Source: a virus
DNA length: 36,552 bases
Virus genome (UHGV): UHGV-0029170
Reading direction: 5' to 3' (one strand)
Shown here: in pieces, positions 1,230 through 36,420 of the stretch
Numbering within the stretch: the stretch's first letter is position 1
Layout: each line of letters opens with the position of its first letter
The notes under the pieces: generated by a model
Seen by the model: the letters and a program-made list of their open reading frames with translations, nothing else
Databases searched by the model: none
Told to the model about the DNA's origin: nothing
Program-made: the position numbers and the translations under genes

Positions 1230-1244
1230 TTTGGAGGTTATGAC

Positions 1245-3750: not shown

Positions 3751-3809
3751 ACACTGGTTCGCACTTGTGATATAGTGCGCATTACCAATCAGGAAAAGGA
3801 AACTTTATC

Positions 3810-5059: not shown

Positions 5060-7246
5060 ATGGCACTATACAGAGAAGGCAAAGCGGCTATGGCCGCCGA
5101 CGGAACCGTTACCGGGACTGGCACAAAATGGCAATCATCGCTTTCGCTGATTCGCCCAGGCGCGACGATTGTGTTTTTATCGTCACCAATTCAAATGGCC
5201 GTCGTAAACAAGGTGGTCAGCGACACTGAAATTAAAGCAATTACCACAAGCAGCGCTGTCGTAGAGTCTACTGACTACGCGATCCTATTAAGTGACTCTC
5301 TGACCGTTGACGGACTGGCGCAAGATGTTGCGGAAACTTTGCGCTACTATCAGTCGCAAGAAACAGTAATTGCGGATGCGGTCGAGTTCTTTAAGGAGTT
5401 CGATTTCGAATCGCTACAAAATCTTGCCAACCAAATCAAGGCAGACTCCGAAGCTGCTGAATCAAGCGCCGAGGCTGCGGCGACGTCTGAAAGTAATGCT
5501 AAAACTTCAGAGACTAAAGCCAAAGAGTCTGAAAATGCGGCAAAAAGTTCAGAGGTAGCAGCGGAGACTGCAAGAGACCAAGTACAGCAGATCATCAATG
5601 ATGCTGGCGAGCAGTCAACGCTGGTTGCGCTTGCTTCACATACGTTGCCAGGAGCATCAAAAGTCGCTCTTGCTGACGGATTTCTGAACGACTACATAAA
5701 GGAAAAAACTTATGAGTCACTTGGTGCTAAATTCGATGGCATAAACGATGATACTGCTGCGATCCAGGCAGGAAATGAGCTTGTAAAGCAGGGTTATTTA
5801 GTAAAGGCAGTAACGCCAAACGGTAGGGCGAGGATTACTTCACAAGTAACATTTTATGCTGGTTCTGGAGCTGTTGACATGGGTACGGCTTATCTGAAGC
5901 CTGATAGGAATTTGATGACTACTGGCTATGCGGCAAGGGTTATTGGAGACAATACGAGAACATATAATCTTGGCAGCAGATTGATAATCAATATGATTGG
6001 CCCATATGGTGAAATAGGTGAAAAGCCACCTACTGACACCAGTAGTATTACTACGCAACTATGCGGCCTAAATATCGACCCAGGTACTAATACACAGGTA
6101 TCTAATTTGGATATTAGTTGGAAGATCTTTGGATTCATGAAAAACGTAAGAATTGGGAGCAAGTCTGTATATTTGATTCGCGCATGGGGGCCAATGCATA
6201 GCAAAGCATGGGTTTGCAATGTTGAGTTTGACTGTCAAAATGACGCTGGAGAAAATATTAACTTCTTCGGCGGCACTGGTTCAGATTGCAGGAACTCTGA
6301 AAAAACTGCGGCTGATATCTATTCAACATCTGCAGGTCATTTTTTAGGACTGAATCTTATTGGTTATAGTCAGGATTATAATGATGTTGATTTAGACATC
6401 AATGGTGGGTACGTTTATAAATTAGCTGGTCAATTTGAAAATAACTCATTACAGCCTTATGTAAAAATGTCATATACTGTCGGTAAGCGACACCCAACTG
6501 TAATACTACAAACAGTTAATATTGATGGTGGTAATGACCAGGCGCAGGAGGCGGGAAACACTGGACGTCCTGCATGGTTTAAGATTGGTAATGGATGTAT
6601 TTTTCATGCTGACGGTGGAACATGGGGTAAGTATGATAAAATGCACAACACAAAGTTATTTGATGTAAGCGCTAATGGGCCTATTGCACTTAGCGTAAAA
6701 AATATTTACTTCGATACTTATGACGGTGTTGATAGCATAGAATGGGGAGCGCACGGAAACCCGATTAGGAATTATGATTTTAGCGATCACTCATTATCTG
6801 GTTGGAAAACAGAATATACATACCCATCAGGTGGTACACCAGTACCTCCGACGATAACGTATGACGATTCTAAGCCAATAGGAAAAGCAGTTAAAATTTC
6901 ATCGTCAGTTAGCAACGGTGGAACAACGACGCTATTCGGTCAGAAGATACCAGTAACTCCTGGAGGCATACTTTACATGTCCACAAATCTTTATTGGGAA
7001 AATATAGTCACAACAAACGGAACAGCATATTTCGGATATACGTTCTATGATGCATTTGGTGATGAAATAACGCACAACAACATAGGTGTAAACTTGAATT
7101 TGCAGCCAGCAAACGCTACAGCACCAGTTTTGTGCTCTGGTAGGGTGCGCATTCCTTCTGGTGCGGCATTTGTGCATGTTGGAATTCGCCATTATCAGAT
7201 GAGCGGAGATGTATGGATGGGTAAGATGAATGCATTTGTTCAATGA
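5060..7246 (+). CDS. Lateral tail fibre / tailspike with pectate-lyase-like (depolymerase-type) central domain; mosaic
   Basis: ATG at 5060 with AGAGGA RBS (ORF track start 5012 lacks RBS); Ala/Ser/Glu-rich fibre-like stretch; motif [17 protein letters not shown] typical of beta-helix pectate-lyase-like tailspikes; sequence after ~5.65 kb is markedly AT-rich by eye. Confidence 0.7.
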
Positions 7247-10400: not shown

Positions 10401-11179
10401 GGGTCGTAGTTGCGCGGAACCTGGACAATCTTCCACTTCTTCTTGAGCGAGATTGTCGGAATCTGGTTCTGGAACAGATCGCTATCAAACTCGACGTAAA
10501 GCATTGCCGTCAACGGGTAGCGGAATTTTGCATCAATCACCTCAGCGTAGGACTGAACCTGGAAGGCATCGACTACCTTCACCCCGTCAGCGTCCGGCGT
10601 AATTCGGCTTACGCGGATAAGCACCTGCGACGTGAAGTCTTGCGGTAGGTTGACGCGGATGCTGCGATCGTAACCGCCAGTCGTATTCTTCCCGTCGATT
10701 TTGTCGGTCAGGTAGGTTTGATAGCTCGCACCGTCAACCGCCATTTCGATCTTGTACTCAACGACCGAACCGACCATATCGCCATTATCTTTTTGCGTCA
10801 GCACGCGGGGCCATAACAGGCGGAAGCGGATAGCAGAAAGATTCTTGTTCGATACCGTCAGCGTGTACGGCGTGTTAAAGGTAACGTCGCGTGCAACCTG
10901 GAATTCAGCGCTTGATTCACTGAAGCCCTGGATGTAACTCTGCGTTTGCGTGCCGGGGCGAAATTCTGCAATAACGCCCTCATAGTTATAACTCCCGTCT
11001 TCGTTCTGAACCGGAACGCCTCCGAAATGCAACTGCTTCAGGCTGAAGTCATCCACTACTTCACCGTCAGAAACGGCCAGCAATAACTTAATCTTGTCTT
11101 TCGAGATCAGGTTATCAGGCATTTCTGCCGGGGTTCGCGTCTTGCTGGAACCGCCCTTGCGGGCCTTGATATTAGTCAT
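7478..11179 (-). CDS. Central tail fibre / host specificity protein (lambda J-like)
   Basis: 1233-aa ORF, RBS GGAGG before ATG 11179; N-terminus MTNIKARKGGSSKTRTP... and ...VLFIADRFAIIRNA... resemble lambda J; sits after I/K/L/M homologues in lambda order. Confidence 0.85.
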   Translation of the reverse strand: MTNIKARKGGSSKTRTPAEMPDNLISKDKIKLLLAVSDGEVVDDFSLKQLHFGGVPVQNEDGSYNYEGVIAEFRPGTQTQSYIQGFSESSAEFQVARDVTFNTPYTLTVSNKNLSAIRFRLLWPRVLTQKDNGDMVGSVVEYKIEMAVDGASYQTYLTDKIDGKNTTGGYDRSIRVNLPQDFTSQVLIRVSRITPDADGVKVVDAFQVQSYAEVIDAKFRYPLTAMLYVEFDSDLFQNQIPTISLKKKWKIVQVPRNYDPVNRTYAGTWDGTFKWAWSNNPAWVLYDLIMNQRYGLDQRELGIPVDKWSLYEVAQYCDELVPDNRGGMEPRYLMDMIVQSQVEAFQLVRDVCSAFRGMTFYNGESLSIIVDKPRDPVYLFTADNVVDGVFVRTFPSEKTMYTSCNVMFDDEENQYEQDVEPVFNPDAAMRFGHNPTSITAIGCTRRTEANRRGRWILQTNLSATTVSFSTGLEGMIPSCGDVIYVADPHWQSAFNLVLSGRIMEVTGTQVFLAFRCDAKAGDTLILNTDDGKPVRRTIANVSADGKTLTLNVGYNFDVAPDSVFLIESDQLAAEQYVVTRIEKGSDDDEFTFAITATQYNPNKYDAIDNGVITDDRPTSVVDPDSMGAPENVSISSFSRIVQGMSVETMVIGWSAVQYAKLYEVQWRKDGGNWNNVPRTATTQVDIEGIYAGEYQARVRCISGGNVASPWSALATATLTGKVGAPKGPINLFASDDEIFGIRVKWAMPEGAEDTAYIELYQSQSGTDQDASLLTLIPYPAAEYWHSILPAGYVNWYKARSVDRIGNVSPWTDYARGMSSTDVNAITDTILDEILDSDAMKELQDSAQDSAAKLNEYANSIIQNALANDADVRIMKKENGKRKAEIKHAEVLIANETEARVQQVNQISAEFNENLNAGLTQVNEALANETEARVTSEEALSARIGENSAALDQKLDSWADVNGVGSMYTMKLGLKYNGQEYNSGMAMQLTASGGSVVSQVLFIADRFAIIRNAASGDYTLPFVVQNDQVFMNNALIQDGSITNAKIGNVIQSNNYIAGDQGWMINKNGGSEFQNTTVRGTIYATDGIFKGTVQAEAFIGDIAVAKRYDSMTLRRNQTVQRDGSYQNRGYGMTVVLSCTLIGETYGTGASNLGYTVDVTFNIGGQQAVRRIYIDAGNISTGTTAVELRFAADLVADNNNVSFFVKATGRDAVTDYTVTIDNITATAFRTNSNSFS

Positions 11180-17469: not shown

Positions 17470-18126
17470 TTAAGCGTTGGTTACAGGTAAGAAAACGTGC
17501 GAACCTTTAAGCGCAACGTTAAGGGCCACGGTTTCCATTTCGTTGACAGCCGTCGACGGGATATCATCGAAGGAAGCCGTTCCAGACCAATAACGAACTT
17601 CCGCCGCTCGCGGTACATACATGTACATCGCTTTCGCCTCTTTGCTCGCATCGGCAGCACGCAGAACCGGGTAGATCGCGTTGTCGTACTCATGCGCAAA
17701 TTGGTAGTTTAGCGTTACCGCCGATTTGTAGGTCGGTTCGGACTGCTCGCGTTCGTCGCTCAGGCACTGATAGTTATAATACTGCTGCTCGTTACCATCC
17801 TTACCCAAATCCTGAATGCATGGCAATTCGATCCAGTCAGAGATTATGCTTACGCTGCCAGTTGCCGCAGTGGGGTACTTGTTGGCGTCAGAAGTGTCGA
17901 ATTCTTCCAGGGTCGCAACACCCGCCGCCACTTCTTTAACGCGAGCCACCTTGTTCACAAAGTCGCTCCAAGTGCAATCGGTGAAGATTACAACATCGCC
18001 AGCCTCAAGCGCGCCAGTAGCAACCGTGATTTTTGGGTTTTTCGCGTCGTTAGTCATTGCGGAAAACGGGATCGCCGCCCCGCGTGCCTTCTCAAAGAAG
18101 ACCTTAGCACCGTTTGGTAAATGCAT
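17470..18126 (-). CDS. Major tail (tube) protein
   Basis: ATG at 18126 with GGAG RBS (MHLPNGAKVFF...); 218 aa; position between tail completion genes and G/GT. Confidence 0.65.
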   Translation of the reverse strand: MHLPNGAKVFFEKARGAAIPFSAMTNDAKNPKITVATGALEAGDVVIFTDCTWSDFVNKVARVKEVAAGVATLEEFDTSDANKYPTAATGSVSIISDWIELPCIQDLGKDGNEQQYYNYQCLSDEREQSEPTYKSAVTLNYQFAHEYDNAIYPVLRAADASKEAKAMYMYVPRAAEVRYWSGTASFDDIPSTAVNEMETVALNVALKGSHVFLPVTNA

Positions 18127-21326: not shown

Positions 21327-21407
21327 GTGAAACTCCTGTTTGTGTGTTTTGACTTAACGAGATGAAGAATAGCACGAATTGCTAAACGGTCAAAGGTTTT
21401 TTTAACG

Positions 21408-27395: not shown

Positions 27396-27422
27396 TAATC
27401 CTCCTTCTGTGTTGAGTTGCGA

Positions 27423-27469
27423 GTATACCAGATTGCAGGCACAAAAAAACCCGCCGAAGCGGGTTATGT
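27423..27469 (-). promoter_or_regulatory. Terminator hairpin (27448-27465) followed by extended -10-like TGgTATACT: early/late junction
   Basis: Minus strand: AACCCGC-TTCG-GCGGGTT + T7 directly after stop at 27470, then CTGGTATACTCGCAA and RBS/ATG of terminase small subunit. Confidence 0.5.
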
Positions 27470-28058: not shown

Positions 28059-28235
28059 TTACCATCCCCACTTCTCATAGTAGAAGTCATCTACTCGCTT
28101 TCCTGCACAGTAAGCCTCCTCGATTTCACCTTCTGTGATATCGAATGATTTACCGTTTAGCTCTACGATTAGCTCCAGTTGCTCACCCCAATCCTCAAGG
28201 CTAGAGTTCATTCTAGTTGATGATAAATCCGCCAT
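28059..28235 (-). CDS. Hypothetical small acidic protein (not in ORF track)
   Basis: Hand translation MADLSSTRMNSSLEDWGEQLELIVELNGKSFDITEGEIEEAYCAGKRVDDFYYEKWGW; ATG overlaps stop of upstream ORF (TAATG); fills an otherwise empty gap. Confidence 0.35.
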   Translation of the reverse strand: MADLSSTRMNSSLEDWGEQLELIVELNGKSFDITEGEIEEAYCAGKRVDDFYYEKWGW

Positions 28236-28483
28236 TATTCGTATTCTCCATCTTTACGCCCAAAACGCCCTTCCAGGTATCCAGCTATCCAGATAAACTG
28301 GCCGCGAGTAACCAGCGTGTTGATTTGCGCCCAATGTTTATCGATCATCTTCGCGGCGACCTGATCGTAGGTCTTCTTGTCCTTCTTGATGGCGTCTTTT
28401 GTTTCTGCTGCCATCTGCTTTGCTATGCGCTTCACGGCGTTGTACTGCGCTTCATTCAGTCCGAACATTTGGCCTTCTCCCAT
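28235..28483 (-). CDS. Hypothetical protein
   Basis: 82-aa ORF; likely start at internal ATG 28468 (RBS GGGAGAAGG). Confidence 0.4.
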   Translation of the reverse strand: MGEGQMFGLNEAQYNAVKRIAKQMAAETKDAIKKDKKTYDQVAAKMIDKHWAQINTLVTRGQFIWIAGYLEGRFGRKDGEYE

Positions 28484-28692
28484 TCTACCCAGGTTCCGCG
28501 AGCAATGAACACTTCAACACGCAGCGGACTATTGAAATTTTTGTAGATGAAGATGAACCCTTTTCTGCTGTCCGTCTCCACCTGCGCAACCGGGAACGCC
28601 AGCGGCTTGATGGCGTCGTCCGACTCACTCATGCGGATACCAGTAATCGTTGCGCCAATCGGCATATCTTCGACTTTTGAGTATTCAGGCAT
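28456..28692 (-). CDS. Hypothetical protein
   Basis: 78 aa; RBS AAGGAG 10 nt upstream of ATG 28692. Confidence 0.45.
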   Translation of the reverse strand: MPEYSKVEDMPIGATITGIRMSESDDAIKPLAFPVAQVETDSRKGFIFIYKNFNSPLRVEVFIARGTWVEWEKAKCSD

Positions 28693-28761
28693 ACAATCGC
28701 ACTCCTTAAATTTGCGCCCGCCAGAATGGCTTACAGGCGCTTTAAACTGTATTCGATTTCG

Positions 28762-29337
28762 TTAATTTTTTACGTGGTGGCAAGGTTCGCCATCTTTGAC
28801 CTCGCCCCACGCCCGGCGCTTGTTCCGCTCCAACTTTTCCGCCACCGCTTCAGCCAACTGCTCATCACTGAATCCGGCGCGGCGGGTTGCGTCCCATACC
28901 AACATGAGGATATCGGCGAACTCGCTAATGTCATCCGGCGCTTCGGCGGCCTCGATCGCCTCTTTCGCCAGGTGCTTGAGCGGCCCGACTGGCCCAACGT
29001 TGCCGAACTGGCGATCCGACCACTCCGCGTGCTGCTCCCGAATATTGGTGAACGGGTCGGCCTTCACTTCCGGCTCCGCTCGCAGGCATTGAAAATCGCT
29101 CCACGTCTTCGGGTTGTGCTGCATCTCACGCAGGCTCGCTAACGCGCCGTTGATATCCATGCCTTCCGGCCAGTTAACCTTGAACGCTTCAGGCTTGCGG
29201 AAATGCTCGACAAGATCGCCACCAAGAACGGTTTGCTGCATAATCGCCTGCTCTTTGGTGTCGCAGATGAGGCGGAGCGATTTGCGCCCCTCGTTGGTTC
29301 CGATAGTGTAGGTCAGTACCCAAATTTTGTTGCTCAT
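28762..29337 (-). CDS. Putative nucleotide pyrophosphohydrolase (MazG-like C-terminal domain)
   Basis: ATG 29337 overlaps stop of upstream ORF (ATGA); C-terminal EWSDRQFG...LKHLAKEAIEAAEAPDDISEFADILMLVWDATRRAGF...AEKLERNKRR resembles MazG/dNTP-pyrophosphohydrolase helices. Confidence 0.45.
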   Translation of the reverse strand: MSNKIWVLTYTIGTNEGRKSLRLICDTKEQAIMQQTVLGGDLVEHFRKPEAFKVNWPEGMDINGALASLREMQHNPKTWSDFQCLRAEPEVKADPFTNIREQHAEWSDRQFGNVGPVGPLKHLAKEAIEAAEAPDDISEFADILMLVWDATRRAGFSDEQLAEAVAEKLERNKRRAWGEVKDGEPCHHVKN

Positions 29338-29546
29338 TCTTCCACAACCTCGCATTCGTCTTCGCTCACGCTGATATTGTCACCAGCCTGGATAAATTCG
29401 CTATTGCGCGGGGCAATTACGCAGTATGAGCCGTCATTGAAGTGGCCATCGACCTCAAGAATGTCGCCGATTTTGAGGCCGCATTCTTCCAGGGTAATTG
29501 AGCCGTCGCCGTTGAGTGTGTCGATTTTGGTGATTTTGATTTTCAT
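29334..29546 (-). CDS. Hypothetical small acidic protein
   Basis: 70 aa, net charge about -11; first ORF downstream of cassette copy 29559-29621. Confidence 0.45.
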   Translation of the reverse strand: MKIKITKIDTLNGDGSITLEECGLKIGDILEVDGHFNDGSYCVIAPRNSEFIQAGDNISVSEDECEVVEE

Positions 29547-29558
29547 TGCTGTAACTCC

Positions 29559-29621
29559 GTTTCGTTTCGATGGGGTAACTATACCAGCTTACCCCCGATC
29601 GGTTTTAGCAATTCGTGCTAT
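29559..29621 (-). promoter_or_regulatory. Conserved promoter/operator cassette copy
   Basis: Minus strand: ATAGCACGAATTGCTAAAACCGATCGGGGGTAAGCTGGTATAGTTACCCCATCGAAACG. Confidence 0.5.
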
Positions 29622-29817
29622 TTGGCAGGCCATCCATGACTTTCAGTTTAACCCACTCGATGCGCCCCTGCGCCTCGGCAATGCCTAACTCATAACTCGC
29701 GCCTTTCTGGTGAGGGCGAACCCGCCAGCGTTTGCCGCCCTCATCGCACCAGTAATAGAACTTCCCGCGAAAGCGCACGTTGTAGGTAAAGCCGTTGAAC
29801 CACATTTTGATGTTCAT
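29605..29817 (-). CDS. Hypothetical protein (basic, Trp/Tyr-rich)
   Basis: 70 aa; stop TAA lies inside Box A of the downstream cassette. Confidence 0.4.
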   Translation of the reverse strand: MNIKMWFNGFTYNVRFRGKFYYWCDEGGKRWRVRPHQKGASYELGIAEAQGRIEWVKLKVMDGLPNSTNC

Positions 29818-29825
29818 GTATCACC

Positions 29826-30050
29826 TCACCACTTAAAATTGCGGGAAATGATCACGCTGCCAACGGCGGAAAGTGCAATCCAGGGCCAGCACAACACAGG
29901 ATAAAGATCGTCTTTGTCGGTAGAGTCCGCAGATTTCAGGAAGGCCCGCGTGAGGAAACAGCCGCACGCATACAGGGCCAGAATAAGAACCACCAGGGCA
30001 ATAATTGCGTAAATCATGATGTTTTTCCTTGTCTTTGGTGGGGTAGCCAT
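29826..30050 (-). CDS. Small membrane protein (two predicted TM segments)
   Basis: IMIYAIIALVVLILALYACGCF and WPWIALSAVGSVIIS hydrophobic stretches; RBS GGAG 7 nt before ATG 30050. Confidence 0.4.
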   Translation of the reverse strand: MATPPKTRKNIMIYAIIALVVLILALYACGCFLTRAFLKSADSTDKDDLYPVLCWPWIALSAVGSVIISRNFKW

Positions 30051-30082
30051 GCAGCAACTCCGGTTAGTGTTTGTGGTTCGTG

Positions 30083-30403
30083 CTATTGCTGGAGTTTTGC
30101 GAAGGCGTCGGCCATCATGCGCAAAACTCGCGCGTGATCTTCAACGTCATAGCCAGGTTCGGTGCGCATGATTTCCCGAATCTTCTCGATCGTGGCGATA
30201 GCCTCCTGAAGTTCACCAGTCAGGAAAGCAACCTGCTGTTCAAGCTCCGCTATTCGTGAGAACGGTTCACGCATGAATGATTCGCACGAGGCATCACTAA
30301 GAGCCCAATCGATCCCGGCGCGAATAACGGCTTTTAACAGCGGGTCGTCGTCTTTGGCGAAGTTGTCGGACGGGATCAGGTGTATGATTTGTGTGGTGTT
30401 CAT
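30083..30403 (-). CDS. Hypothetical protein
   Basis: Start set to ATG 30403 (MNTTQII...) because ORF-track start lies inside the upstream cassette. Confidence 0.4.
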   Translation of the reverse strand: MNTTQIIHLIPSDNFAKDDDPLLKAVIRAGIDWALSDASCESFMREPFSRIAELEQQVAFLTGELQEAIATIEKIREIMRTEPGYDVEDHARVLRMMADAFAKLQQ

Positions 30404-30430
30404 GGTTAGGATCCATCTCTTGTTAGTGTT

Positions 30431-30479
30431 GGGATAGTATGCACCATCCCCGGACGTTCGTTTTAGCAATTAGTGCTAT
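30431..30479 (-). promoter_or_regulatory. Conserved promoter/operator cassette copy
   Basis: Minus strand: ATAGCACTAATTGCTAAAACGAACGTCCGGGGATGGTGCATACTATCCC. Confidence 0.45.
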
Positions 30480-30967
30480 CAAAGGGCGTCTAATTCCGCC
30501 TCAATGAATTCGTACCACTCGTGGCCGTTTGCGGGATCGTGTTCGGTTCCATGCAGCCAGTCCGTATGGGTGGAACAGAATTCGCCGGATTTGTTGAAGT
30601 AAAAGTCGGCCCATGACCGCGCCCAATCGCCGACGCCAGCGAACGTGCCGAACTTGCGGATGTATGCGTCGGTGTATCCGCGCTGCTTCGCTATGCGCTT
30701 CAGTGCGCGAACCAGCAACTTACGCGGAGACGCCTTTGACACTTTCCGCAGGTGGAAAAGCGCGTTTTCCGGCTCGCTACCAACACGGATGGTCAAATCT
30801 TCGTCAGCATCCAGCGGATTGACGATAAATTCGTTAAGGTATCCGCCCTGGATTACGTGCGCTGTGCCTAGTGGCTCGCGCACCTCGACGGCATCGAATA
30901 CGCAGCCGATAAGGTGGCGCTCACGTTCGCGGGCCGCATTGACAACCATAAGTTTGACGGTTTTCAT
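30479..30967 (-). CDS. Hypothetical protein
   Basis: 162-aa ORF; start ATG overlaps stop of upstream gene (TAATG). Confidence 0.45.
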   Translation of the reverse strand: MKTVKLMVVNAARERERHLIGCVFDAVEVREPLGTAHVIQGGYLNEFIVNPLDADEDLTIRVGSEPENALFHLRKVSKASPRKLLVRALKRIAKQRGYTDAYIRKFGTFAGVGDWARSWADFYFNKSGEFCSTHTDWLHGTEHDPANGHEWYEFIEAELDAL

Positions 30968-31185
30968 TATCGGATCTCCTTCACCTGGTGAACTTCGAGA
31001 AGGTTGGTTACTTCACGGATGCCGCAGTCCTCGAATTCCTCTTCGGCCCCTGCTGCCACCCTTAATCTGGTAAACCCGGCGTCATCGTCGATTGCGACTT
31101 CAATAACCTGCTCGCTCGAAAGCTCGATGTATGCGCAGCCGTAGGAATTCAGCTCTTCCAGCAGTGCGATTAAATTGTCGTTCAT
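30967..31185 (-). CDS. Hypothetical small acidic protein
   Basis: 72 aa, net charge about -12 (DDD, EEEFED runs); ATG 31185 with AGGAG RBS. Confidence 0.45.
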   Translation of the reverse strand: MNDNLIALLEELNSYGCAYIELSSEQVIEVAIDDDAGFTRLRVAAGAEEEFEDCGIREVTNLLEVHQVKEIR

Positions 31186-31212
31186 TGCGTTGCTCCTGAT
31201 TGGATTGTTCAC

Positions 31213-31268
31213 TTCAGTAACGCCACTTTATCAAATGACGTTACGGCAGTTTTAACAAAAAGTGCTAT
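31213..31268 (-). promoter_or_regulatory. Conserved cassette copy (variant with GTAACG...CGTTAC inverted repeat)
   Basis: Minus strand: ATAGCACTTTTTGTTAAAACTGCCGTAACGTCATTTGATAAAGTGGCGTTACTG. Confidence 0.45.
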
Positions 31269-31450
31269 TCTTTTTCGCCGCTGAACGCTGCCCGATACCC
31301 ACGGCGGAACCCGTTAATCTCCGACAGGCGGCATACGCCAATAATCATGCACAGCATTCCGATCGTCTGCCAGCCTACGTGGTCATGCAGTGCCAGGCCG
31401 CCCAGGAAGAAAGCCCAATACAGCGCGAGTTTCTTTTTGCTTACTTTCAT
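31265..31450 (-). CDS. Small membrane protein
   Basis: 61 aa; hydrophobic LALYWAFFLGGLAL and IGMLCMIIGV segments. Confidence 0.4.
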   Translation of the reverse strand: MKVSKKKLALYWAFFLGGLALHDHVGWQTIGMLCMIIGVCRLSEINGFRRGYRAAFSGEKE

Positions 31451-31692
31451 ACTTTCACCTCAAATAGAACGTTGTTTTCGTATGGCCTATTGGCATACAT
31501 GGCGATCTTTTCGTCCGGCATACGGCAGGCGGGCCAGAATTCTTCGTCCTCAGTAGTTACCTGGTCGTCCTGCAAAATCCATACTTCATCAAGGCCAGGG
31601 CCGAACCTGGCTTCATACTCGCGGCCAGGTGTGAAATAGGTGGATAGCGGCGAATAGCCAGCGTGCGTGCAAATTACTTTTACCGTTTCCAT
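31447..31692 (-). CDS. Hypothetical protein
   Basis: 81 aa; start overlaps upstream stop (TAATG). Confidence 0.4.
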   Translation of the reverse strand: METVKVICTHAGYSPLSTYFTPGREYEARFGPGLDEVWILQDDQVTTEDEEFWPACRMPDEKIAMYANRPYENNVLFEVKV

Positions 31693-31994
31693 TAGTAGAT
31701 CCCGTTAGTCCAAACGTAGCCGTGTTCGATTATCTCGCGCAGCTTAACCTTCTTCGGCGCTGGATTTACTCCGTCTCCGCCAGTGTAGAACCCTGTTCCA
31801 TACGCAAAATGAACCTGCTTCGCGAACAGTCCGCCGCGCGCCTGGATGTAAAGTCGGTTGCGCATGGCCAGACCTCTAAGCGTGTTGACCTGCTCGATGG
31901 GGTCGCCTTTTACATTCGAGATCTTGCACATTACTGGCTTTTCGCCAAATTGCCCGGTTAAGCAGTGGCGGTCGAAGTCTGATAAACGTATCAT
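31692..31994 (-). CDS. Hypothetical protein
   Basis: 100-aa ORF in the co-directional array. Confidence 0.4.
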   Translation of the reverse strand: MIRLSDFDRHCLTGQFGEKPVMCKISNVKGDPIEQVNTLRGLAMRNRLYIQARGGLFAKQVHFAYGTGFYTGGDGVNPAPKKVKLREIIEHGYVWTNGIY

Positions 31995-32003
31995 CCAGAC
32001 ACC

Positions 32004-32375
32004 TCAAAGCTGATTTGCAAAGATGTGCCAGACGTGATCTTCTGGCGTGCGTTTCATTAGTTTGTGCGCCTTGCGTGCCATGCGCTTATAGTCGCGGGCG
32101 GTAAGTTTCGTGGGGTCGGCAACGAACGATTCAACAATTAACCCATCGCAATGATATTCCGGCAGCCATTCCCGATGGGTTCGCCATTCGTTGAAAGTGG
32201 TTAGCTGGATAACGGAATGCAAGTCACTGTGAAGGTGCTCCCCGCGCTCGCCGTAATGGAAAGCTCCGCGAATTTTGCCATCATTGCCTACGTGCAAAAG
32301 GTGAATGCGGCTTTTCTTGCCTTCGAAGTTGGTTCCGACGATGGCGACAACTGCGTTTTTGACGATCTGCTTCAT
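32004..32375 (-). CDS. Hypothetical protein (His-rich)
   Basis: 123 aa; first ORF downstream of cassette copy 32400-32448. Confidence 0.45.
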   Translation of the reverse strand: MKQIVKNAVVAIVGTNFEGKKSRIHLLHVGNDGKIRGAFHYGERGEHLHSDLHSVIQLTTFNEWRTHREWLPEYHCDGLIVESFVADPTKLTARDYKRMARKAHKLMKRTPEDHVWHIFANQL

Positions 32376-32399
32376 GGTGAATCTCCGTTGTTTGGTGTA

Positions 32400-32448
32400 T
32401 GGCCATTATGCCCGATCTGCTGACCGGGCGTTTAGCAAAAAGTGCTAT
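32400..32448 (-). promoter_or_regulatory. Conserved promoter/operator cassette copy
   Basis: Minus strand: ATAGCACTTTTTGCTAAACGCCCGGTCAGCAGATCGGGCATAATGGCC. Confidence 0.5.
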
Positions 32449-32646
32449 TCAGAAACAGAGCGCCTCACGCTCCAGGCTGGCCAGTGACGGAAAGCTGAAT
32501 TTTGTAACGTGGTACGAGCCGCCAACATAGCCGGAAATGCTGATATTGTTGAACTCAACCTCAACACTGATAATCTTCATGTTCTTGCTGAAGGCGTACA
32601 TTGCAAGCGCACGGTGCGCCCGCGCCAGGAATTCGAATTGGTTCAT
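32449..32646 (-). CDS. Hypothetical protein
   Basis: 65 aa; ATG overlaps upstream stop (ATGA). Confidence 0.35.
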   Translation of the reverse strand: MNQFEFLARAHRALAMYAFSKNMKIISVEVEFNNISISGYVGGSYHVTKFSFPSLASLEREALCF

Positions 32647-32900
32647 TTAAAGATCGCCCCTTTGATTTTGTTCCAGAAAGCGAATGGCTGACGCTGCGGC
32701 TTCAGTTCCACGATATCGTGATCATAGAATCCGCGATGCTTGCCGCAAAGGAGCGGCTGCACGCCATCCGTTACCATATCGCCAATGAAGAACCGCTTGC
32801 CGCTATCCATGAAGTAAAGGCCGTGGCATACGCCTGGCGCGGCATGAGTTGCGGTATCTGGCAGGCTGTATACCCTGCCGCGAGATTTGAATTGCTGCAT
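32643..32900 (-). CDS. Hypothetical protein
   Basis: Start set to ATG 32900 (MQQFK...) with AGGAGA RBS. Confidence 0.4.
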   Translation of the reverse strand: MQQFKSRGRVYSLPDTATHAAPGVCHGLYFMDSGKRFFIGDMVTDGVQPLLCGKHRGFYDHDIVELKPQRQPFAFWNKIKGAIFK

Positions 32901-32941
32901 TATCCTGTCTCCTTGCATAATTTGGTCGTTAATCGACTTCG

Positions 32942-32990
32942 TGATAATTATGCCCGATCCTCTGACCGGGCGTTTAGCAATGCGTGCTAT
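32942..32990 (-). promoter_or_regulatory. Conserved promoter/operator cassette copy
   Basis: Minus strand: ATAGCACGCATTGCTAAACGCCCGGTCAGAGGATCGGGCATAATTATCAC. Confidence 0.5.
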
Positions 32991-33307
32991 TTCAGGCCGC
33001 GAAGGTCAATCTTCGATCTTGCCCAATCAGGGAAGCGAGCCATTTCGCCAACCTGAACCATTTTGTTTCCGCCCGGCCCCTTATCCACCCATGAATCAGG
33101 CGAGTAGCTCAGTAGGCGAACATTTTCAACGGTCGACTCATAGGCCCAAATCGCCCCGTCTTCATCAATGGCAACCGTGTTAGTCCAAACTGGCACGTCA
33201 AGCGACTGCATATCGAACGTGCCAGGGATGTTAATCTGGAAGGCTACAACGTGGCGCTGCGTGATGGTGGCCACTACTTGCTCGCCGGATTTAACTTCGT
33301 TAATCAT
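32987..33307 (-). CDS. Hypothetical protein
   Basis: Start set to ATG 33307 (MINEVKSGEQ...) with AAGGAG RBS. Confidence 0.4.
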   Translation of the reverse strand: MINEVKSGEQVVATITQRHVVAFQINIPGTFDMQSLDVPVWTNTVAIDEDGAIWAYESTVENVRLLSYSPDSWVDKGPGGNKMVQVGEMARFPDWARSKIDLRGLK

Positions 33308-33317
33308 TGCGTTCTCC

Positions 33318-33530
33318 TTACAGGAACATTCCAGCCAGGCGCAGGCGGGTAATGATGCTATCCCGTTTAGCGCGCAGGCCATCATAGTAATCTTCCAGTT
33401 GCGCATCCCATGACGGCAGGTCAAGCATAAGATTCATTTCGTTGCACACCACCTTCAGCGCGTGGAAGTGTTGCTCTACCGCGCGACGGTGAAATGCTGC
33501 ATTGAGTGGGTTGTTTTGGTTGCCGATCAT
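33318..33530 (-). CDS. Hypothetical protein
   Basis: 70 aa; first ORF downstream of cassette copy 33545-33602. Confidence 0.4.
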   Translation of the reverse strand: MIGNQNNPLNAAFHRRAVEQHFHALKVVCNEMNLMLDLPSWDAQLEDYYDGLRAKRDSIITRLRLAGMFL

Positions 33531-33544
33531 GTTTACGCTCCTCT

Positions 33545-33602
33545 GTTTCGATGGGGTAATGATAGCGCATCACCCCGATTGCGTTTTAACAAAAAGTGCT
33601 AT
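33545..33602 (-). promoter_or_regulatory. Conserved promoter/operator cassette copy
   Basis: Minus strand: ATAGCACTTTTTGTTAAAACGCAATCGGGGTGATGCGCTATCATTACCCCATCGAAAC. Confidence 0.5.
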
Positions 33603-34093
33603 TACTGTGGGATCTGGAAGCAGAGTTCCCGCCAGTTGCGATGCTCGCGGCCAGTGTTGCCCAGGAAGCAGACTGTTCGCGCAATGTGGCCGTACTGCTC
33701 CGAACCGCGAATCCATTCGCCCAGGTAATCATTCGCGTCGTCGTCATCCGGCAGGCAGTGGCGCGGGCGCATCTTGAATGCGAAGACGTCGCCGTTACCG
33801 TCGATGGCAATGTGGGTGGCCCCGCCCTGGATGGCCGTCTGTGCGGTTGCAGTCGTGGTGCTTTTGTCGATGCCAGCCAGGAAGTTAGAGAATTCGTTCA
33901 TGGCCATGCTCTTTTGCTCCGGCTCCGCCTCGACAAGCAGAAGTGTATCGTTGCCGACCATCGCAAAGAAGATCGCCGCTGTCATATTCGACTTCTTCAC
34001 AATCTTGCCTTCGCGCTTGCGCATCATCACTGCGTCATCTTCCAGCCAGTAAATCAGGCCATTAAGGGTGTTGAGGTATTCGCGAGATTTCAT
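33602..34093 (-). CDS. Hypothetical protein
   Basis: 163 aa; RBS GGAGCA before ATG 34093; first ORF downstream of cassette copy 34110-34169. Confidence 0.45.
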   Translation of the reverse strand: MKSREYLNTLNGLIYWLEDDAVMMRKREGKIVKKSNMTAAIFFAMVGNDTLLLVEAEPEQKSMAMNEFSNFLAGIDKSTTTATAQTAIQGGATHIAIDGNGDVFAFKMRPRHCLPDDDDANDYLGEWIRGSEQYGHIARTVCFLGNTGREHRNWRELCFQIPQ

Positions 34094-34109
34094 TGTGGTG
34101 CTCCGTTGT

Positions 34110-34169
34110 TCGTTTCGATGGGGTTACTATAGCAAGCCGCCCCGATCGTGTTTTAACAAAAAGTGCTAT
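34110..34169 (-). promoter_or_regulatory. Conserved promoter/operator cassette copy (extended -10-like TGCTATAGT)
   Basis: Minus strand: ATAGCACTTTTTGTTAAAACACGATCGGGGCGGCTTGCTATAGTAACCCCATCGAAACGAAC. Confidence 0.5.
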
Positions 34170-34381
34170 TTGAAGTTGTGAACCTGGTTCCCGCCGCTGT
34201 GGTCGTCAATGTCAACGCCGTCGCAGGTGACGTAAAAGCCGCGAATTACGGTGAAGCGCCACTTGCCTAACCAGTGGAAGTATACGCCGTGCTCGCTGCC
34301 ATGGACGGCTTTGGTTGATGAGTATGGGATCGGCATCCCGGCGAAGGTGCGAAGTTTGGTTGTTGCTGAAAATCGTGGCAT
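34166..34381 (-). CDS. Hypothetical protein
   Basis: ORF 34166-34387; start probably ATG 34381 (AGGAGG RBS 7 nt upstream). Confidence 0.4.
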   Translation of the reverse strand: MPRFSATTKLRTFAGMPIPYSSTKAVHGSEHGVYFHWLGKWRFTVIRGFYVTCDGVDIDDHSGGNQVHNFK

Positions 34382-34450
34382 GGCCATTCCTCCTGGCGTT
34401 TGCCGTGCTGGTGGTGGGAATATAGCGCCACCGAAGCGGCGCTATTGTGA

Positions 34451-34558
34451 TTATTTACCCTGGCGCGCAAGGTAGCGCTCTTTGAGTTTCTGCCAGTGCC
34501 AGCGCATAACGTGTTCGTTATGGTAGTTGCTGGTTGAATATGGATTCTTCTTGCTCAT
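34451..34558 (-). CDS. Very small basic protein, about 35 aa (not in ORF track)
   Basis: Hand translation MSKKNPYSTSNYHNEHVMRWHWQKLKERYLARQGK; GGAG 8 nt upstream of ATG 34558; fills gap between neighbouring genes. Confidence 0.25.
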   Translation of the reverse strand: MSKKNPYSTSNYHNEHVMRWHWQKLKERYLARQGK

Positions 34559-34575
34559 CTTCATCTCCAGGTTGC

Positions 34576-34761
34576 TTACTTGATTCGAACTTCAACTTCA
34601 ATGTCGGACTGCGGCGCGAAGAGTTGGGCCTTTCCATTAACGCGAATGGTAAGAATGTTCCCCTTGCGATCTGCTGCGAGAACCAGGCGAAACTTGCCAG
34701 CAAACTTAACCATCATTCCCGGCTTAACTTCGCTCATCTTGATAACCTTATCCATCTTCAT
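34576..34761 (-). CDS. Hypothetical small protein
   Basis: Start set to ATG 34761 (MKMDKVIKM...) with GAGGTGA RBS; first ORF downstream of cassette copy 34770-34830. Confidence 0.4.
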   Translation of the reverse strand: MKMDKVIKMSEVKPGMMVKFAGKFRLVLAADRKGNILTIRVNGKAQLFAPQSDIEVEVRIK

Positions 34762-34769
34762 CACCTCAG

Positions 34770-34830
34770 TTCGTTGTCGATGGGTAAATAATACCGGATC
34801 TCGCCATCGGCGTTTTAGCAAAAAGTGCTA
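34770..34830 (-). promoter_or_regulatory. Conserved promoter/operator cassette copy
   Basis: Minus strand: ATAGCACTTTTTGCTAAAACGCCGATGGCGAGATCCGGTATTATTTACCCATCGACAACGAAC. Confidence 0.5.
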
Positions 34831-35037
34831 TCTTTCCACCTCGTGCATATCGCCAACCGAAAGATAATAAGCGATATCAAGGCGGCTCATTGTGGGATGA
34901 GGCCAGCCGCATTCATGCCAGATAACATCGCCCTCGCCTTTAGTCCACATGGTTTCGCCATCCCAGCGCCAAAGGCGGTTATTGAGGCGCGATCCGTAGA
35001 CCGCGCCAGGTTTTACATCGCTCGCCTTAAAATTCAT
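34828..35037 (-). CDS. Hypothetical protein
   Basis: ORF 34828-35088; likely start at internal ATG 35037 (MNFKASDVKPG...). Confidence 0.35.
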   Translation of the reverse strand: MNFKASDVKPGAVYGSRLNNRLWRWDGETMWTKGEGDVIWHECGWPHPTMSRLDIAYYLSVGDMHEVER

Positions 35038-35179
35038 AATCGACAACCCCGAACTCGTTAACGATCTGCGCCTTGTAAAAGCCACCATTTGCCGCCAGAT
35101 TGTAGCACGCCGCCACGGTCTCGAACTCGCGCACTTCCGGCTTGCTGTTTTCGTGTTCCCAGGTAATCAGAGTAATCAT
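35027..35179 (-). CDS. Hypothetical small protein, about 50 aa
   Basis: Start set to ATG 35179 (MITLITWEH...) with GAGGAAACC RBS, because ORF-track start lies inside the upstream cassette. Confidence 0.35.
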   Translation of the reverse strand: MITLITWEHENSKPEVREFETVAACYNLAANGGFYKAQIVNEFGVVDYEF

Positions 35180-35191
35180 TTCGGTTTCCTC

Positions 35192-35255
35192 GGTTCGTTG
35201 TCGATGAAGAGATAATACCCGATCGCTCTGACCGGGTTTTAACAAAAAGTGCTAT
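35192..35255 (-). promoter_or_regulatory. Conserved promoter/operator cassette copy
   Basis: Minus strand: ATAGCACTTTTTGTTAAAACCCGGTCAGAGCGATCGGGGTATTATCTCTTCATCGACAACGAAC. Confidence 0.5.
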
Positions 35256-35557
35256 TGCGGGCAGTCGAGGCTAATGATGTTGTCGGCCTCATCGGCCATC
35301 ATCGCCAGGACGTTCGACGCGCCGATGAATTCCGGCTTCGTCACTGCCTGGCCCGTCTCGGTGATGTGCTGAATGTAAGATTCAGATTCCGGGAGAAATG
35401 ACATTAACAGCAAGTCGGCTGTAACGCATTCCAGGGCGGTTGGATTTTCGTCGTCCGATGCAGTGGCAATGGCTGCGATAACCTCCTGCTCGCTGATTGG
35501 CGTGTCGCCCAGGCGCATCGGTGCCGCCGGGTCGTTTTGGTCTGGATATAGTTTCAT
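35252..35557 (-). CDS. Hypothetical acidic protein
   Basis: 101 aa, net charge about -14; second gene of the minus-strand array. Confidence 0.45.
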   Translation of the reverse strand: MKLYPDQNDPAAPMRLGDTPISEQEVIAAIATASDDENPTALECVTADLLLMSFLPESESYIQHITETGQAVTKPEFIGASNVLAMMADEADNIISLDCPQ

Positions 35558-35559
35558 GG

Positions 35560-36093
35560 TTATTCTCCTGTGATTTTGGCTTTCAGTGCCATTGTGTAAC
35601 CGTTGTAAAGCAGGCCTTTTGGCATCACTTCGTCAATGATGGCAAGGCATCTTTCCCGCTCAGAGGTAGCGCCCTGCTTTCTGTACGCTTCCGCCTCCAT
35701 GTGCGAGCCAGTCATTGCGTCGAACTCGGTAAAGACGGAGATTAACCCCACCCCCAGGCTCACGCGCAACACCTCGCCCGGCTCCAGGAGTTTCAGCAAC
35801 GGCCTGCGGAAATGGTTGTCGACAGGATGAACGCCGAACTTCTCCGCGAACTCCTCCGCCGTCATCTGGATACGCCGCCCGCCATCCAGGAACATGCGCC
35901 GGATCTCGGAAGAGCGGTTGCCAGTGAATGTGCCTTCCGGCTTCGCGGCTTCCTGGCTCCGCCCGGCTGGCCTGGTGGCGTCACCAAACGTGATGGATTG
36001 CAGCCATTCATGGTACGCGGCCTGTTTTTCTGCGTCGTACTGCATCCACTCGGACACGTCGACTTCCTCGAACTCATAACCTTTATATTGCAT
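35560..36093 (-). CDS. Hypothetical protein, first gene of the minus-strand small-gene array
   Basis: ORF 35560-36108; likely start ATG 36093 (MQYKGYEFEE...) with GGGGGAA RBS; no recognisable motif. Confidence 0.45.
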   Translation of the reverse strand: MQYKGYEFEEVDVSEWMQYDAEKQAAYHEWLQSITFGDATRPAGRSQEAAKPEGTFTGNRSSEIRRMFLDGGRRIQMTAEEFAEKFGVHPVDNHFRRPLLKLLEPGEVLRVSLGVGLISVFTEFDAMTGSHMEAEAYRKQGATSERERCLAIIDEVMPKGLLYNGYTMALKAKITGE

Positions 36094-36287
36094 GTGTTTC
36101 CCCCACATTTACGGCGTTTGTGTGTGTTTGGTAAGGCTATCTTACTGGCTCAAGGCCTTGTCGTCAAAGGGTTTGTGCGTGTGTGGTAAGATTCGGAAGC
36201 ATCCCCTATATACCCCTTTACATATATCGCGCGGCGGAACATCTAAAATTTACGGCTCTCGCAAGATGATTCCGGTAGCCATGCCGG

Positions 36288-36420
36288 GAGAAATCTTACC
36301 AAACATATATAGATAGAGAGAGTAATAATAATAATATTGTTATTTATCATATACTTATATATTTATTATAGTCTTATATTGGTCACTTTTTGTGCAATTT
36401 TCAGGTAAGATTTTTCCTCC
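36288..36420. repeat. AT-rich core flanked by inverted GGAGAAATCTTACC / GGTAAGATTTTTCC arms; partial inverted copy of 2367-2452
   Basis: 36288-36357 matches the reverse complement of 2367-2452 over ~70-85 bp (shared GGAGAAATCTTACCAA...AATAATAATAATATTRTTATTTATCATATACTTA); second arm at 36404-36417. Confidence 0.5.

Follow-up and report, generated by a model that had tools for sequence, protein, structure and literature searches.

The marbox, for which the consensus GCAHWWWWTGYYAAA has been published (PMC6900184), is an asymmetric site that MarA binds as a monomer, and in class II promoters it lies forward and overlaps the -35 (PMC6900184, PMC12052159). Across the genome, forward sites are concentrated at -41 and promoters of class II are without a -35 (PMC10268841), RamA of K. 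pneumoniae binds micF at about -41 (PMC8811837), and the replacement of -35 recognition at micF has been seen structurally for Rob, SoxS and RamA (Rob: PMC9178005). In the cryo-electron microscopy structure of Rob and RNA polymerase at micF, Rob contacts -47G, -45A, the C-terminal domain of the alpha subunit (alpha-CTD) and sigma region 4, and blocks region 4 from the -35 (PMC9178005). Here we describe a cassette of ~75 bp that recurs ahead of small early genes in the virus genome UHGV-0029170 (36,552 nucleotides, the whole of which is called the window below). We consider it probable that this cassette is a class II, activator-dependent sigma-70 promoter of the MarA/SoxS/Rob/RamA type, combined with a hairpin and a leader into a compact unit boundary.

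Comparable plans are known from other phages. The T4 MotA middle promoters and the Mor/C promoters of Mu have a good -10, no -35 and an upstream box at a fixed distance, from which an activator recruits sigma-70 polymerase; the MotA box is centred at -30, the Mor/C dyads lie near -43.5, and the activators are phage-encoded. Both systems share with our cassette the use of an activator box in place of the -35; the cassette differs in that its box has the form of a host marbox and that no phage activator is evident in the Drexlerviridae.

Part of the element has been described. The re-annotation of phage TLS (German et al. 2024, PMC11447400) reported a 21-nt direct repeat, aaATAGCACnnnTTGnTAAAA, in 21 copies oriented with transcription ~76 nt upstream of start codons, divided it into A, T and G subtypes, and mentioned it also for T1, Rtp and Rogue1. 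Its authors listed only three sigma-70-like promoters and suggested that the repeats were stoperators, enhancer sites or UP elements (PMC11447400). This repeat is the same element as Box A, the conserved upstream part of the cassette. An earlier note made from the letters of the window (the sequence-only reading) did not recognise the element from described phage promoters; as a repeat it was already in print, with its function left open. The TLS paper covers the 21-nt repeat alone, and the coupled -10 and its fixed spacing lie beyond it, as do the marbox identity, class II geometry and covarying hairpin that are new here.

Extent and identity of the repeated box

The window is a Klebsiella Webervirus (Drexlerviridae, T1-like), with an 8.5-kb region 92-93% identical to B1, TAH8, KpKT21phi1 and RAD2. 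Its gene order runs from a partial helicase gene, a helix-turn-helix (HTH) gene, a primase gene and recE/erf/ssb-like genes to minus-strand structural genes, and the window ends in a minus-strand array (28059-36108) of ~25 small open reading frames (ORFs), the majority without a Pfam family. All 11 copies of the cassette listed in the sequence-only reading were confirmed at their positions. With up to two mismatches, the pattern TAGCAC-N3-TTGYTAAA has 12 matches in the window against 0.38 expected, and none of 100 shuffles reached that number. A repeat finder independently recovered the direct-repeat families D1-D3. Two forward copies could be added to the first list, one between the HTH and primase-like genes ((+)1166-1245) and one before the erf-like gene ((+)3734-3810), together with a reverse-oriented box (21369-21388) within a putative major-capsid promoter. 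Forward cassettes precede early array genes and the helicase, primase and recE/erf-like genes; the first array gene is preceded instead by canonical or extended -10 candidates.

A search for Box A in related phages, proposed alongside the first list, found the element family-wide. T1 has 22 sites, 19 of them with a -10, and Rtp has 16, of which 15 have a -10; in both phages the cassette unit sits in intergenic gaps of 70-80 bp, and in T1 forward cassettes precede dam, HNH genes and both early arms. When viral contigs were scanned, 120 loci were found, mainly in 41-52-kb genomes and with up to ~20 copies per genome. The anatomy of the cassette was studied on 393 unique copies (137 non-redundant), and its spacing on the 311 with any TAnnnT nearby.

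When the hexamer is placed at -12 to -7, Box A spans -50 to -31 and reads ATAGCACnnnTTGYTAAAAC. The marbox consensus occurs 11 times in the window at up to one mismatch (0.84 expected; 0 of 100 shuffles reach 11), and 0-2 mismatches separate it from 11 of the 13 forward copies, 0-1 from eight of the nine array copies. We built a position weight matrix (PWM) from 70 Salmonella MarA/SoxS/Rob/RamA sites determined by chromatin immunoprecipitation sequencing (PMC10268841). Phage boxes score 16.0-18.1 bits on this matrix, compared with a median of 10.2, a maximum of 17.6 and a micF value of 13.6 for real sites, and rank in the top 0-14% of the 70. The window has 17 matches that reach at least 13.4 bits (75th percentile among real sites) vs 0.57 in shuffles. 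The positions that vary among phage copies are those at which the consensus is itself degenerate: -44 is C/T where the consensus has H, -42 and -41 fall on W, and -37 is C/T on Y. Three otherwise unconstrained bases, A at -50, T at -49 and A at -33, fit positions 1 (A), 2 (Y) and 18 (A) of the longer 20-mer marbox, which we take to be AYnGCACnnWnnRYYAAAYn.

The same element occurs outside the Drexlerviridae. The Pantoea myophage AAM37 (Dibbivirus, NC_048766) shares the helicase/HTH/primase module (32334-46433) and has at least 8 marbox cassettes, in which ATAGCACTTTTTGC(A/C/T)... is followed after 22 nt by TAATAT or TATTAT. One AAM37 box, a perfect 20/20 marbox (ATAGCACTTTTTGCCAAACA), breaks the dyad that the sequence-only reading had emphasised in Box A. 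This dyad, TAGCA-N5-TG(C/T)TA, is present in the window with its centre ~30 bp upstream of the hexamer. Nevertheless, it is probably incidental and not what is read, because the box fits an asymmetric monomer site, keeps a constant orientation with transcription (all 13 cassettes face their gene) and survives as a marbox in AAM37 where the dyad is broken.

The status of the dyad bears on an explanation that we regard as unlikely, in which Box A is the operator of the Cro/YdaS-like HTH protein encoded at 768-1169 (T1 gp23, Rtp52), a dimer of which would bind at ~-42 and activate a phage regulon, the likeness to a marbox being coincidental or convergent. The half-site centres, 10 bp apart around an A/T-rich centre, agree with it. 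The protein is the only annotated regulator conserved family-wide (831 phage records), it has a short homologue in AAM37 too, and among the canonical sigma-70 promoters of the window that of its gene is the best (TTGTCA-N16-TATAAT, 11/12), so that it could be made first. A copy of the box in the 5' untranslated region (UTR) of the HTH gene, shared with the divergent helicase promoter, gives a classic autoregulatory layout that is also found in Rtp. However, the putative recognition helix varies between genera (QVVQQW, QAVEEW, KTVWGW, QTVQGW or SGVRSW) at the residue pair QQ/EE/WG/QG/RS in the same phages whose box is invariant. The box is also asymmetric and strictly oriented, with C/T at -37, the mate of the invariant G-47; the AAM37 copies keep the marbox yet break the dyad; and the Pfam matches of the HTH protein are weak and below cut-offs. 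That chance should produce a match to a 15-bp consensus with both the correct orientation and exactly the micF distance is very improbable, and the GGTAAGAT repeats (15 matches vs 1.6 expected) are an equally good candidate target for the HTH protein. On this evidence the HTH protein is a weaker candidate for the reader of the box.

Two observations concern the HTH gene and its product. At 691-767 the -10 of the gene overlaps the helicase-cassette -10 back to back and the helicase marbox lies in the HTH 5' UTR, an arrangement conserved in Rtp. The iteron-like GGTAAGAT/ATCTTACC motif, counted at up to one mismatch in the window, has ten of its 15 matches clustered in two regulatory regions, 2227-2588 and 36183-36302, in both orientations, and could mark an origin or HTH-protein operators.

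The -10 hexamer and its distance from the box

The distance from TTGYTA to the hexamer is exactly 22 nt in the nine array copies and 21 nt in the copies at 756 and 2628, which supports the initial remark that ~22 bp is too long for an ordinary -35/-10 pair. Among the 311 unique copies it is exactly 22 nt after TTGNTA in 236 (76%) and 21-23 nt in 272, and the spacers are otherwise without sequence relationship across copies. The hexamers of the 11 listed copies are TATTAT (three), TATAGT and CATAAT (two each) and TATCAT, TAAAGT, CATACT and TATACT (one each); across the family their variation follows TAnnnT (TATAGT, TATTAT, TATATT, TATGAT and others). In the non-redundant set, G is found at -14 in 112/137 copies (82%) and T at -15 in 61/137, and 7 nt past the hexamer there is a C at -1 in 102/137 and an A at +1 in 113/137. 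From TAnnnT, G-14 and the C-A step we conclude that the hexamer is a real sigma-70 -10, often extended. No -35 was found at 17 bp, and the gene array has 7 canonical -35/-10 matches vs 7.4 expected by chance.

Several familiar promoter types were considered and set aside. An ordinary sigma-70 promoter with TTGYTA as its -35 disagrees with a spacing of 22 nt in 76% of copies, with nothing -10-like at 17 nt and with canonical matches at chance. Box A as its own extended -10 (TGnTAAAAC) would have C at -7, and its TAAAA is not preserved in AAM37. A sigma-54 promoter has the signature GG-N10-GC; against TGGCAC-N5-TTGCW, the box TAGCAC-N3-TTGC has AG and not GG and 8 instead of 10 nt between the dinucleotides, and a sigma-70 -10 lies downstream. 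The sigma-32 resemblance of CCCCATCGA is confined to one hairpin subclass and stands at the wrong distance. MerR-type promoters have a long spacer of 19-20 bp, with a conserved dyad operator, between true -35 and -10 elements, whereas here the spacer is 22 nt and the inverted repeats covary and take two positions. In an N4 virion-RNA-polymerase promoter a phage-encoded polymerase recognises a DNA hairpin centred near -12; however, the annotations of T1 and Rtp and the report on TLS include neither a polymerase nor a sigma gene, and the hexamer is sigma-70-like. A cruciform or N4-like DNA hairpin does not account for the element either (arms covary, two positions, RNA-type GAAA/UUCG loops), and, judged by their consensus sequences, none of UP element, Fis, IHF, CRP, FNR, DnaA, ArcA and NAC fits.

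The arrangement is that of micF. The E. coli micF promoter reads ACAGCACTGAATGTCAAAAC-N18-TAGAAT, with 22 nt after TGTCA. From the G of GCAC to the -10 downstream of it there are 35 nt in micF, a distance shared by each of the nine array copies; in three other copies it is 34 nt. The 20-mers of the array copies are 12-15/20 identical to the micF box, and the phage G and A carry the same numbers as the Rob-contacted -47G and -45A. Both kinds of promoter have a 20-bp asymmetric site with GCAC and YAAA 7 bp apart, placed forward over the usual -35 position and centred at ~-41, with a sigma-70 -10 and GCAC 35 nt before it. The class II activator-site geometry noticed at the outset is thereby upheld, and a class II marbox that replaces the -35 would explain together the spacing that seemed too long, the missing -35 and the -41.5 geometry. 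The phage sites differ in belonging to a virulent phage, with 13-22 per genome driving nearly all non-structural units, and in being stronger and far more uniform than host sites; unlike these, they are fused to a hairpin, a conserved leader and an upstream stop codon, and activator binding to them is predicted from sequence.

The fixed geometry also bears on a negative or decoy role, with Box A as a set of stoperator-like repressor sites or as a marbox array that titrates MarA/SoxS/Rob/RamA. The TLS authors raised the stoperator analogy, the 16-22 consensus-strength sites per genome could outnumber good host sites once multiplied by replication, and a reverse marbox sits in a core capsid promoter here and in T1, where binding could repress. 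Decoys and stoperators need no fixed distance or orientation, though, whereas 76% of the spacings are exactly 22 nt and nearly all sites face with transcription; a forward site at -41 is an activating configuration; and T1-like phages are virulent, with no repressor known. We hold such a role to be highly improbable. Stoperators of the mycobacteriophage L5 type, which are repressor sites spread through the transcription units of a temperate phage without regard to its promoter elements, were rejected on similar grounds, the sites being locked to a distance from the -10 and no repressor being annotated in T1 or Rtp.

In the class II promoter model that we favour, the marbox (-50 to -31, with GCAC at -47 to -44 and TAAA at -36 to -33) would lie forward over the usual place of the -35, and the -10 hexamer (TAnnnT, with G at -14 and often TG) would follow 18 bp past the box. 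A monomeric dual-HTH activator would contact alpha-CTD and sigma-70 region 4, replacing -35 recognition, and transcription is predicted to start at the A of the conserved C-A step, 7 nt past the hexamer. The stem-loop inside the promoter would form only in read-through RNA from upstream, and might there attenuate, terminate or stabilise a 3' end; the A/C-rich leader (ATCGAAACGAA) plus Shine-Dalgarno sequence would be a third stacked function; and, with stops in two frames in the box, any ORF placed between two cassettes would be both closed and expressed. The cassettes of the window, with scores from the PWM, and the capsid promoter are as follows.

Cassette 1, 35179-35255, minus strand: marbox 35255-35236 (ATAGCACTTTTTGTTAAAAC), 0 mismatches to the 15-mer consensus, 16.0 bits; spacer hairpin CCCGGTC/GATCGGG; -10 TATTAT 35217-35212; predicted +1 A 35205; ATG 35179; upstream stop TAG inside the box.
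Cassette 2, 34755-34831, minus strand: marbox 34831-34812 (ATAGCACTTTTTGCTAAAAC), 17.5 bits; -10 TATTAT 34793-34788; predicted +1 34781; ATG 34755.
Cassette 3, 34093-34169, minus strand: marbox 34169-34150; hairpin CGAT(C)GGGG...CCCCATCG spanning the -10; extended -10 TGc-TATAGT 34131-34126; predicted +1 34119; ATG 34093.
Cassette 4, 33530-33602, minus strand: marbox 33602-33583; hairpin GGGGTGATG/CATTACCCC spanning the -10, TATCAT 33564-33559; predicted +1 33552; ATG 33530.
Cassette 5, 32900-32990, minus strand: marbox 32990-32971 (ATAGCACGCATTGCTAAACG), 16.1 bits; spacer hairpin GCCCGGTC/GATCGGGC; CATAAT 32952-32947; predicted +1 near 32940; ATG 32900.
Cassette 6, 32375-32448, minus strand: marbox 32448-32429, 17.5 bits; spacer hairpin; CATAAT 32410-32405; predicted +1 32398; ATG 32375.
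Cassette 7, 31185-31268, minus strand: marbox 31268-31249; 12-bp hairpin GTAACGTCATTT/AAAGTGGCGTTAC spanning the -10, its arms covarying with the T1 copy (AAGGTCA/TGGCCTT); TGa-TAAAGT 31230-31225; predicted +1 31218; ATG 31185.
Cassette 8, 30403-30479, minus strand: marbox 30479-30460 (ATAGCACTAATTGCTAAAAC), 18.1 bits, exceeding all 70 real host sites; hairpin GGGGATGG/CTATCCC; CATACT 30441-30436; predicted +1 30429; ATG 30403.
Cassette 9, 29546-29621, minus strand: marbox 29621-29602 (ATAGCACGAATTGCTAAAAC), 17.3 bits; hairpin spanning the -10; TGg-TATAGT 29583-29578; predicted +1 29571; ATG 29546; upstream ORF ending at TAA within the box.
Cassette 10, helicase gene, 677-756, minus strand: marbox 756-737 (ACAGCACTTTTTGTTAAACA); 17 bp to TATTAT 719-714; ATG 677; divergent from and overlapping the near-consensus sigma-70 promoter of the HTH gene (TTGTCA-N16-TATAAT, 691-718), with the same layout in Rtp (35297).
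Cassette 11, primase-like gene, 1166-1245, plus strand: box 1166-1185 (ATAGCACAATTTGACTAACT, 2 mismatches), 10.0 bits, about the median real site; TATGAT 1204-1209; GTG 1245; -10 within a terminator-like hairpin, 1189-1225 (-20.1 kcal/mol).
Cassette 12, recE-like gene, 2628-2704, plus strand: ATAGCAC kept, 3' half degenerate (TTGACTTG), -2.8 on the PWM and so a poor marbox; TATACT 2665-2670; ATG 2704.
Cassette 13, erf-like gene, 3734-3810, plus strand: marbox 3734-3753 (ACGGCACAAATAGCTAAACA), 0 mismatches to the 20-mer consensus, 16.6 bits; hairpin GCGCAC/GTGCGC spanning the -10; TGa-TATAGT 3771-3776; ATG 3810.
Putative canonical major-capsid promoter, 21366-21393, minus strand: TTGACC 21393-21388, 16-bp spacer, TATTCT 21371-21366.
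Reverse consensus marbox filling the capsid-promoter spacer, 21369-21388, plus strand: ATAGCACGAATTGCTAAACG, 17.3 bits.

The capsid promoter with its reverse marbox comes directly after a bidirectional terminator, and the major head gene of T1 has the same upstream layout (TTGACG-CTTTAACAAAAAGTGC-TATTAT), which Rtp is without. A moderate marbox-like site at 35575-35589 on the minus strand (GCACTGAAAGCCAAA, 13.7 bits) lies within the first array gene at its 3' end, and the next start codon follows after ~18 nt; it has no -10 at class II distance and is probably not a promoter. Between the major tail gene and its neighbour, a weak marbox-like site at 18104-18123 on the plus strand has antisense orientation relative to the tail genes. 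Its T1 equivalent at 18847 on the minus strand is a perfect antisense marbox with TAAGAT 35 nt downstream, and might function as an antisense promoter or as a site of class I type.

Hairpin, leader and unit boundaries

The GC-rich inverted repeat that the sequence-only reading recorded and left uninterpreted is present, and proves to be a covarying stem-loop in two positional classes, in the spacer or across the -10. A fixed-register pairing centred at -12.5 captured only 17/137 copies (vs 3.1 in controls), so there is no single register; after that model was dropped the hairpin was tested by z-scores of minimum free energy and by chimera controls. Folded from -32 to +12, copies have a mean z-score of -2.3 relative to shuffles, and 60% are below -2. 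The stem bridges the -10 in 86/137 copies (e.g. GGGGTT...AACCCC, AAGGCCA...TGGCCTT, GTAACGTCA...TGGCGTTAC), and these average -11.25 kcal/mol in their native folds vs -6.57 for chimeras of two copies. Other copies have a complete hairpin in the spacer; its loop is often GAAA, in some copies TTTTG(T/C)TAT comes after it, and in some relatives the hairpin is accompanied by a T-run. As the transcript from the predicted +1 is without the 5' arm, the hairpin can act only on read-through RNA, and it is most likely an attenuator or terminator of the read-through transcript or a 3'-end stabiliser, to judge by analogy with the PeSL cassettes of T4-type phages. The hairpin at 1189-1225 after the HTH gene has a T-run, folds at -20.1 kcal/mol and carries the primase-cassette -10 in its loop.

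The PeSL cassettes have stem-loops between -35 and -10 or over the -10, and their terminator effect has been measured (PMC2839356); one such stem-loop cut downstream reporter expression as strongly as rrnB T1 (PMC2839356, PMC4122927). By description (Arbiol 2010; Comeau 2014), PeSL and our cassette share a promoter with a stem-loop between the upstream element and the -10 or over the -10, polyG/polyC stem tracts and small ORFans between the units, with indel boundaries that appear to fall at the cassettes here too, and both are repeated intergenic units that reach from an upstream stop to a downstream ATG. PeSL has a consensus -35/-10 early promoter with an AT-rich upstream region, whereas the T1-type cassette has a marbox 5 bp further upstream instead of the -35. 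Terminator activity and mini-circle formation are features of PeSL; for the T1-type cassette a terminator role is proposed by analogy.

The sequence of conserved linear box and covarying hairpin, often with GAAA or UUCG loops, in an array with no canonical promoters could also suggest an RNA-level element, a nut-like (boxA/boxB) antitermination or RNA-processing site in a long early transcript. We find this extremely improbable. The position of the hairpin relative to the box varies between two classes while the box-to-hexamer distance is fixed, the hexamer bears the DNA signature of a -10 (TAnnnT, G-14, C-A start), no Rfam family matched the cassette, and the stems are too short for RNase III.

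In different genera and in either hairpin class, the first ~12 bases of the predicted transcript form a conserved leader, ATCGAAACGAA, with GAGGA after it (e.g. 34119-34094 and 29571-29547); possible roles of the leader are in translation, promoter escape or RNA stability. Dam sites (GATC) are over-represented in the spacers (-31 to -13), with 28/137 copies vs 7.7 in shuffles, including six of the nine window array copies, and occur mostly within CGATCGGGG or GATCGGG hairpin arms. The phages concerned encode a Dam-type methylase.

The upstream edge of the unit is set by stop codons. By comparison of ORF ends with box coordinates, 11 cassettes come after a gene, and in 8 of them the box contains the stop of that gene, as TAG at box positions 2-4 in six and as the TAA of TTGCTAAA/AGCTAAA in two (29621 and 3734); in the remaining 3/11 the upstream stop ends 0-1 nt before TAG. 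Because of these TAG and TAA stops, the box closes two of three reading frames. The sequence-only reading was right that stops often fall inside Box A and that the array consists of repeated units of stop, upstream box, -10, leader, ribosome-binding site and gene.

The units may also mark rearrangement boundaries. Relative to related phages, 19 of 45 homology breakpoints fall in cassette zones that make up 10.4% of the region, which is suggestive of ORF shuffling, although the genomes are related, so that the breakpoints do not count as independent cases, and boundaries naturally fall in intergenic regions. Two adjacent T1-type cassettes (10042-10082 and 10386-10430) flank small ORFs in KP15, a T4-like Klebsiella phage (Slopekvirus, GU295964). 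One of the two is intact, the box of the other has lost 1 nt, and their annotation reads "putative middle promoter; discovered using MEME". The locus is common to ~117 related records, and the KP15 ORFs beside the cassettes have no homologue among the compared Drexlerviridae loci. Other 'middle promoters' of KP15 are units of a hairpin plus TTTTGTTATATT, resembling the spacer-hairpin class.

Such boundaries could be the whole purpose of Box A. Under this explanation the promoters are constitutive -10 or extended -10 promoters for unmodified host polymerase, and the box is a portable boundary that supplies two-frame stops and ~70 bp of homology for ORF shuffling, with at most an UP-like effect. 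The TG at -15/-14 in ~45% and G-14 in 82% of the 137 copies, the in-box stops in 8/11 cassettes, the breakpoint excess, the same cassette around unrelated ORFs in KP15 and the PeSL precedent are all in keeping with it. However, a recombination or stop role leaves unexplained the exact 22-nt coupling across unrelated spacers, as well as the base-by-base fit to marbox degeneracy and the micF position, and the conserved G/C positions (AGCAC, TTG) are not UP-element-like. Shuffling and activation are compatible and do not exclude each other, and we think it quite unlikely that boundary function is all there is.

Candidate readers and consequences

If the class II promoter reading is right, an activator must be supplied by phage or host. 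No HTH_18 or HTH_AraC domain was found by Pfam in 37 small ORFs of T1 and 28 of the window; tblastn detected no homologue of MarA, SoxS or AAM37 gp49 in the window, T1, Rtp or ~120 related loci, and no gp49 homologue in Drexlerviridae among 50,697 phage records. A host protein is the likeliest reader because these searches found no recognisable AraC-type protein in the Drexlerviridae, and this would most likely be Rob (constitutive), SoxS/MarA or, in Klebsiella, RamA. The dedicated transcription-factor regulon first proposed was to use a phage-encoded or hijacked host factor; the hijacked host factor is now the leading option, and the HTH protein at 768-1169 is a weaker candidate. AAM37 has a candidate of its own: gp49 (36758-37168) is a 136-aa SoxS-like dual-HTH protein with HTH_18 (1.8e-14) and HTH_AraC matches, and its gene lies downstream of a marbox cassette.

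Several points weigh against the class II promoter reading. The first recognition helix of gp49, YRCSWGEEF, differs from the SKWxLQRMF of MarA/SoxS, so that GCAC specificity is not assured. Without stress, cells contain little MarA and SoxS, both of which are unstable, and keep most of their Rob sequestered; total dependence on an activator would, in our judgement, be a risky design for a virulent phage. The TG extended -10 of 61/137 copies could fire without one. Within the box, GAA-type copies carry G at a W position, position 15 is T where we take the SoxS optimum to be C, and the 2628 copy is without a usable 3' half-site. Around a quarter of copies have no significant hairpin, so the hairpin is facultative, and only one window hairpin passes a terminator-pattern scan. 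The searchable literature yielded no transcription start, footprint or genetic data for T1-like phages.

Taken with the stress regulators that would read it, the cassette suggests that the phage has placed its early genes under the influence of the host stress response. A wider proposal, which we advance tentatively as a possibility, is that a whole virulent family, T1 and its relatives with the Klebsiella Weberviruses of phage therapy among them, relies on host-read class II marboxes for nearly all of its early, replication and accessory transcription, so that phage development is coupled to the stress and resistance state of the cell. If so, development should be faster in cells exposed to bile, salicylate or oxidants and in marR, ramR or soxR resistance mutants; replicating phage DNA, with 16-22 top-strength sites per copy, could drain the regulators from the host regulon; and the reverse marbox in the capsid promoter could be a titration-based timing switch.

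T1 promoters were never defined although T1 is a classic phage, and a class II marbox would give a testable model for ~20 units per genome in at least 800 sequenced relatives. Papers linking marbox, MarA or SoxS to T1-like phages were not found in the open-access literature. Were host Rob, MarA, SoxS or RamA the readers, regulators of clinical multidrug resistance would be required cofactors of phages used against Klebsiella and E. coli, with predictions for phage-antibiotic synergy and for the permissiveness of resistant mutants; phage resistance gained by losing these regulators would make cells sensitive to drugs again. The cassette extends the PeSL idea, of mobile promoter-terminator cassettes around ORFans, to a second, unrelated phage lineage, with copies also in a T4-like Klebsiella phage, and may represent a compact, naturally optimised activator-dependent promoter part.

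Two other motifs of the window are candidate promoters. A 50-nt AT-rich inverted repeat, 92% complementary, lies at 2380-2429 and 36308-36357, and each arm is followed by TTGGTAAGAT, which is extended -10-like. The TTGGTAAGAT copies read outward, to the recE-like gene and to the early array, and with UP-like upstream DNA are candidate immediate-early promoters. A second conserved motif, a terminator followed by GCCTGYAATATGGTAWAAT of the extended -10 type, precedes packaging and late genes (T1 8340-8362, Rtp 5780-5800); the window has one copy of GCCTGYAATATGGTAWAAT with 2 mismatches, at 27422-27440 on the minus strand, near the small-terminase gene.

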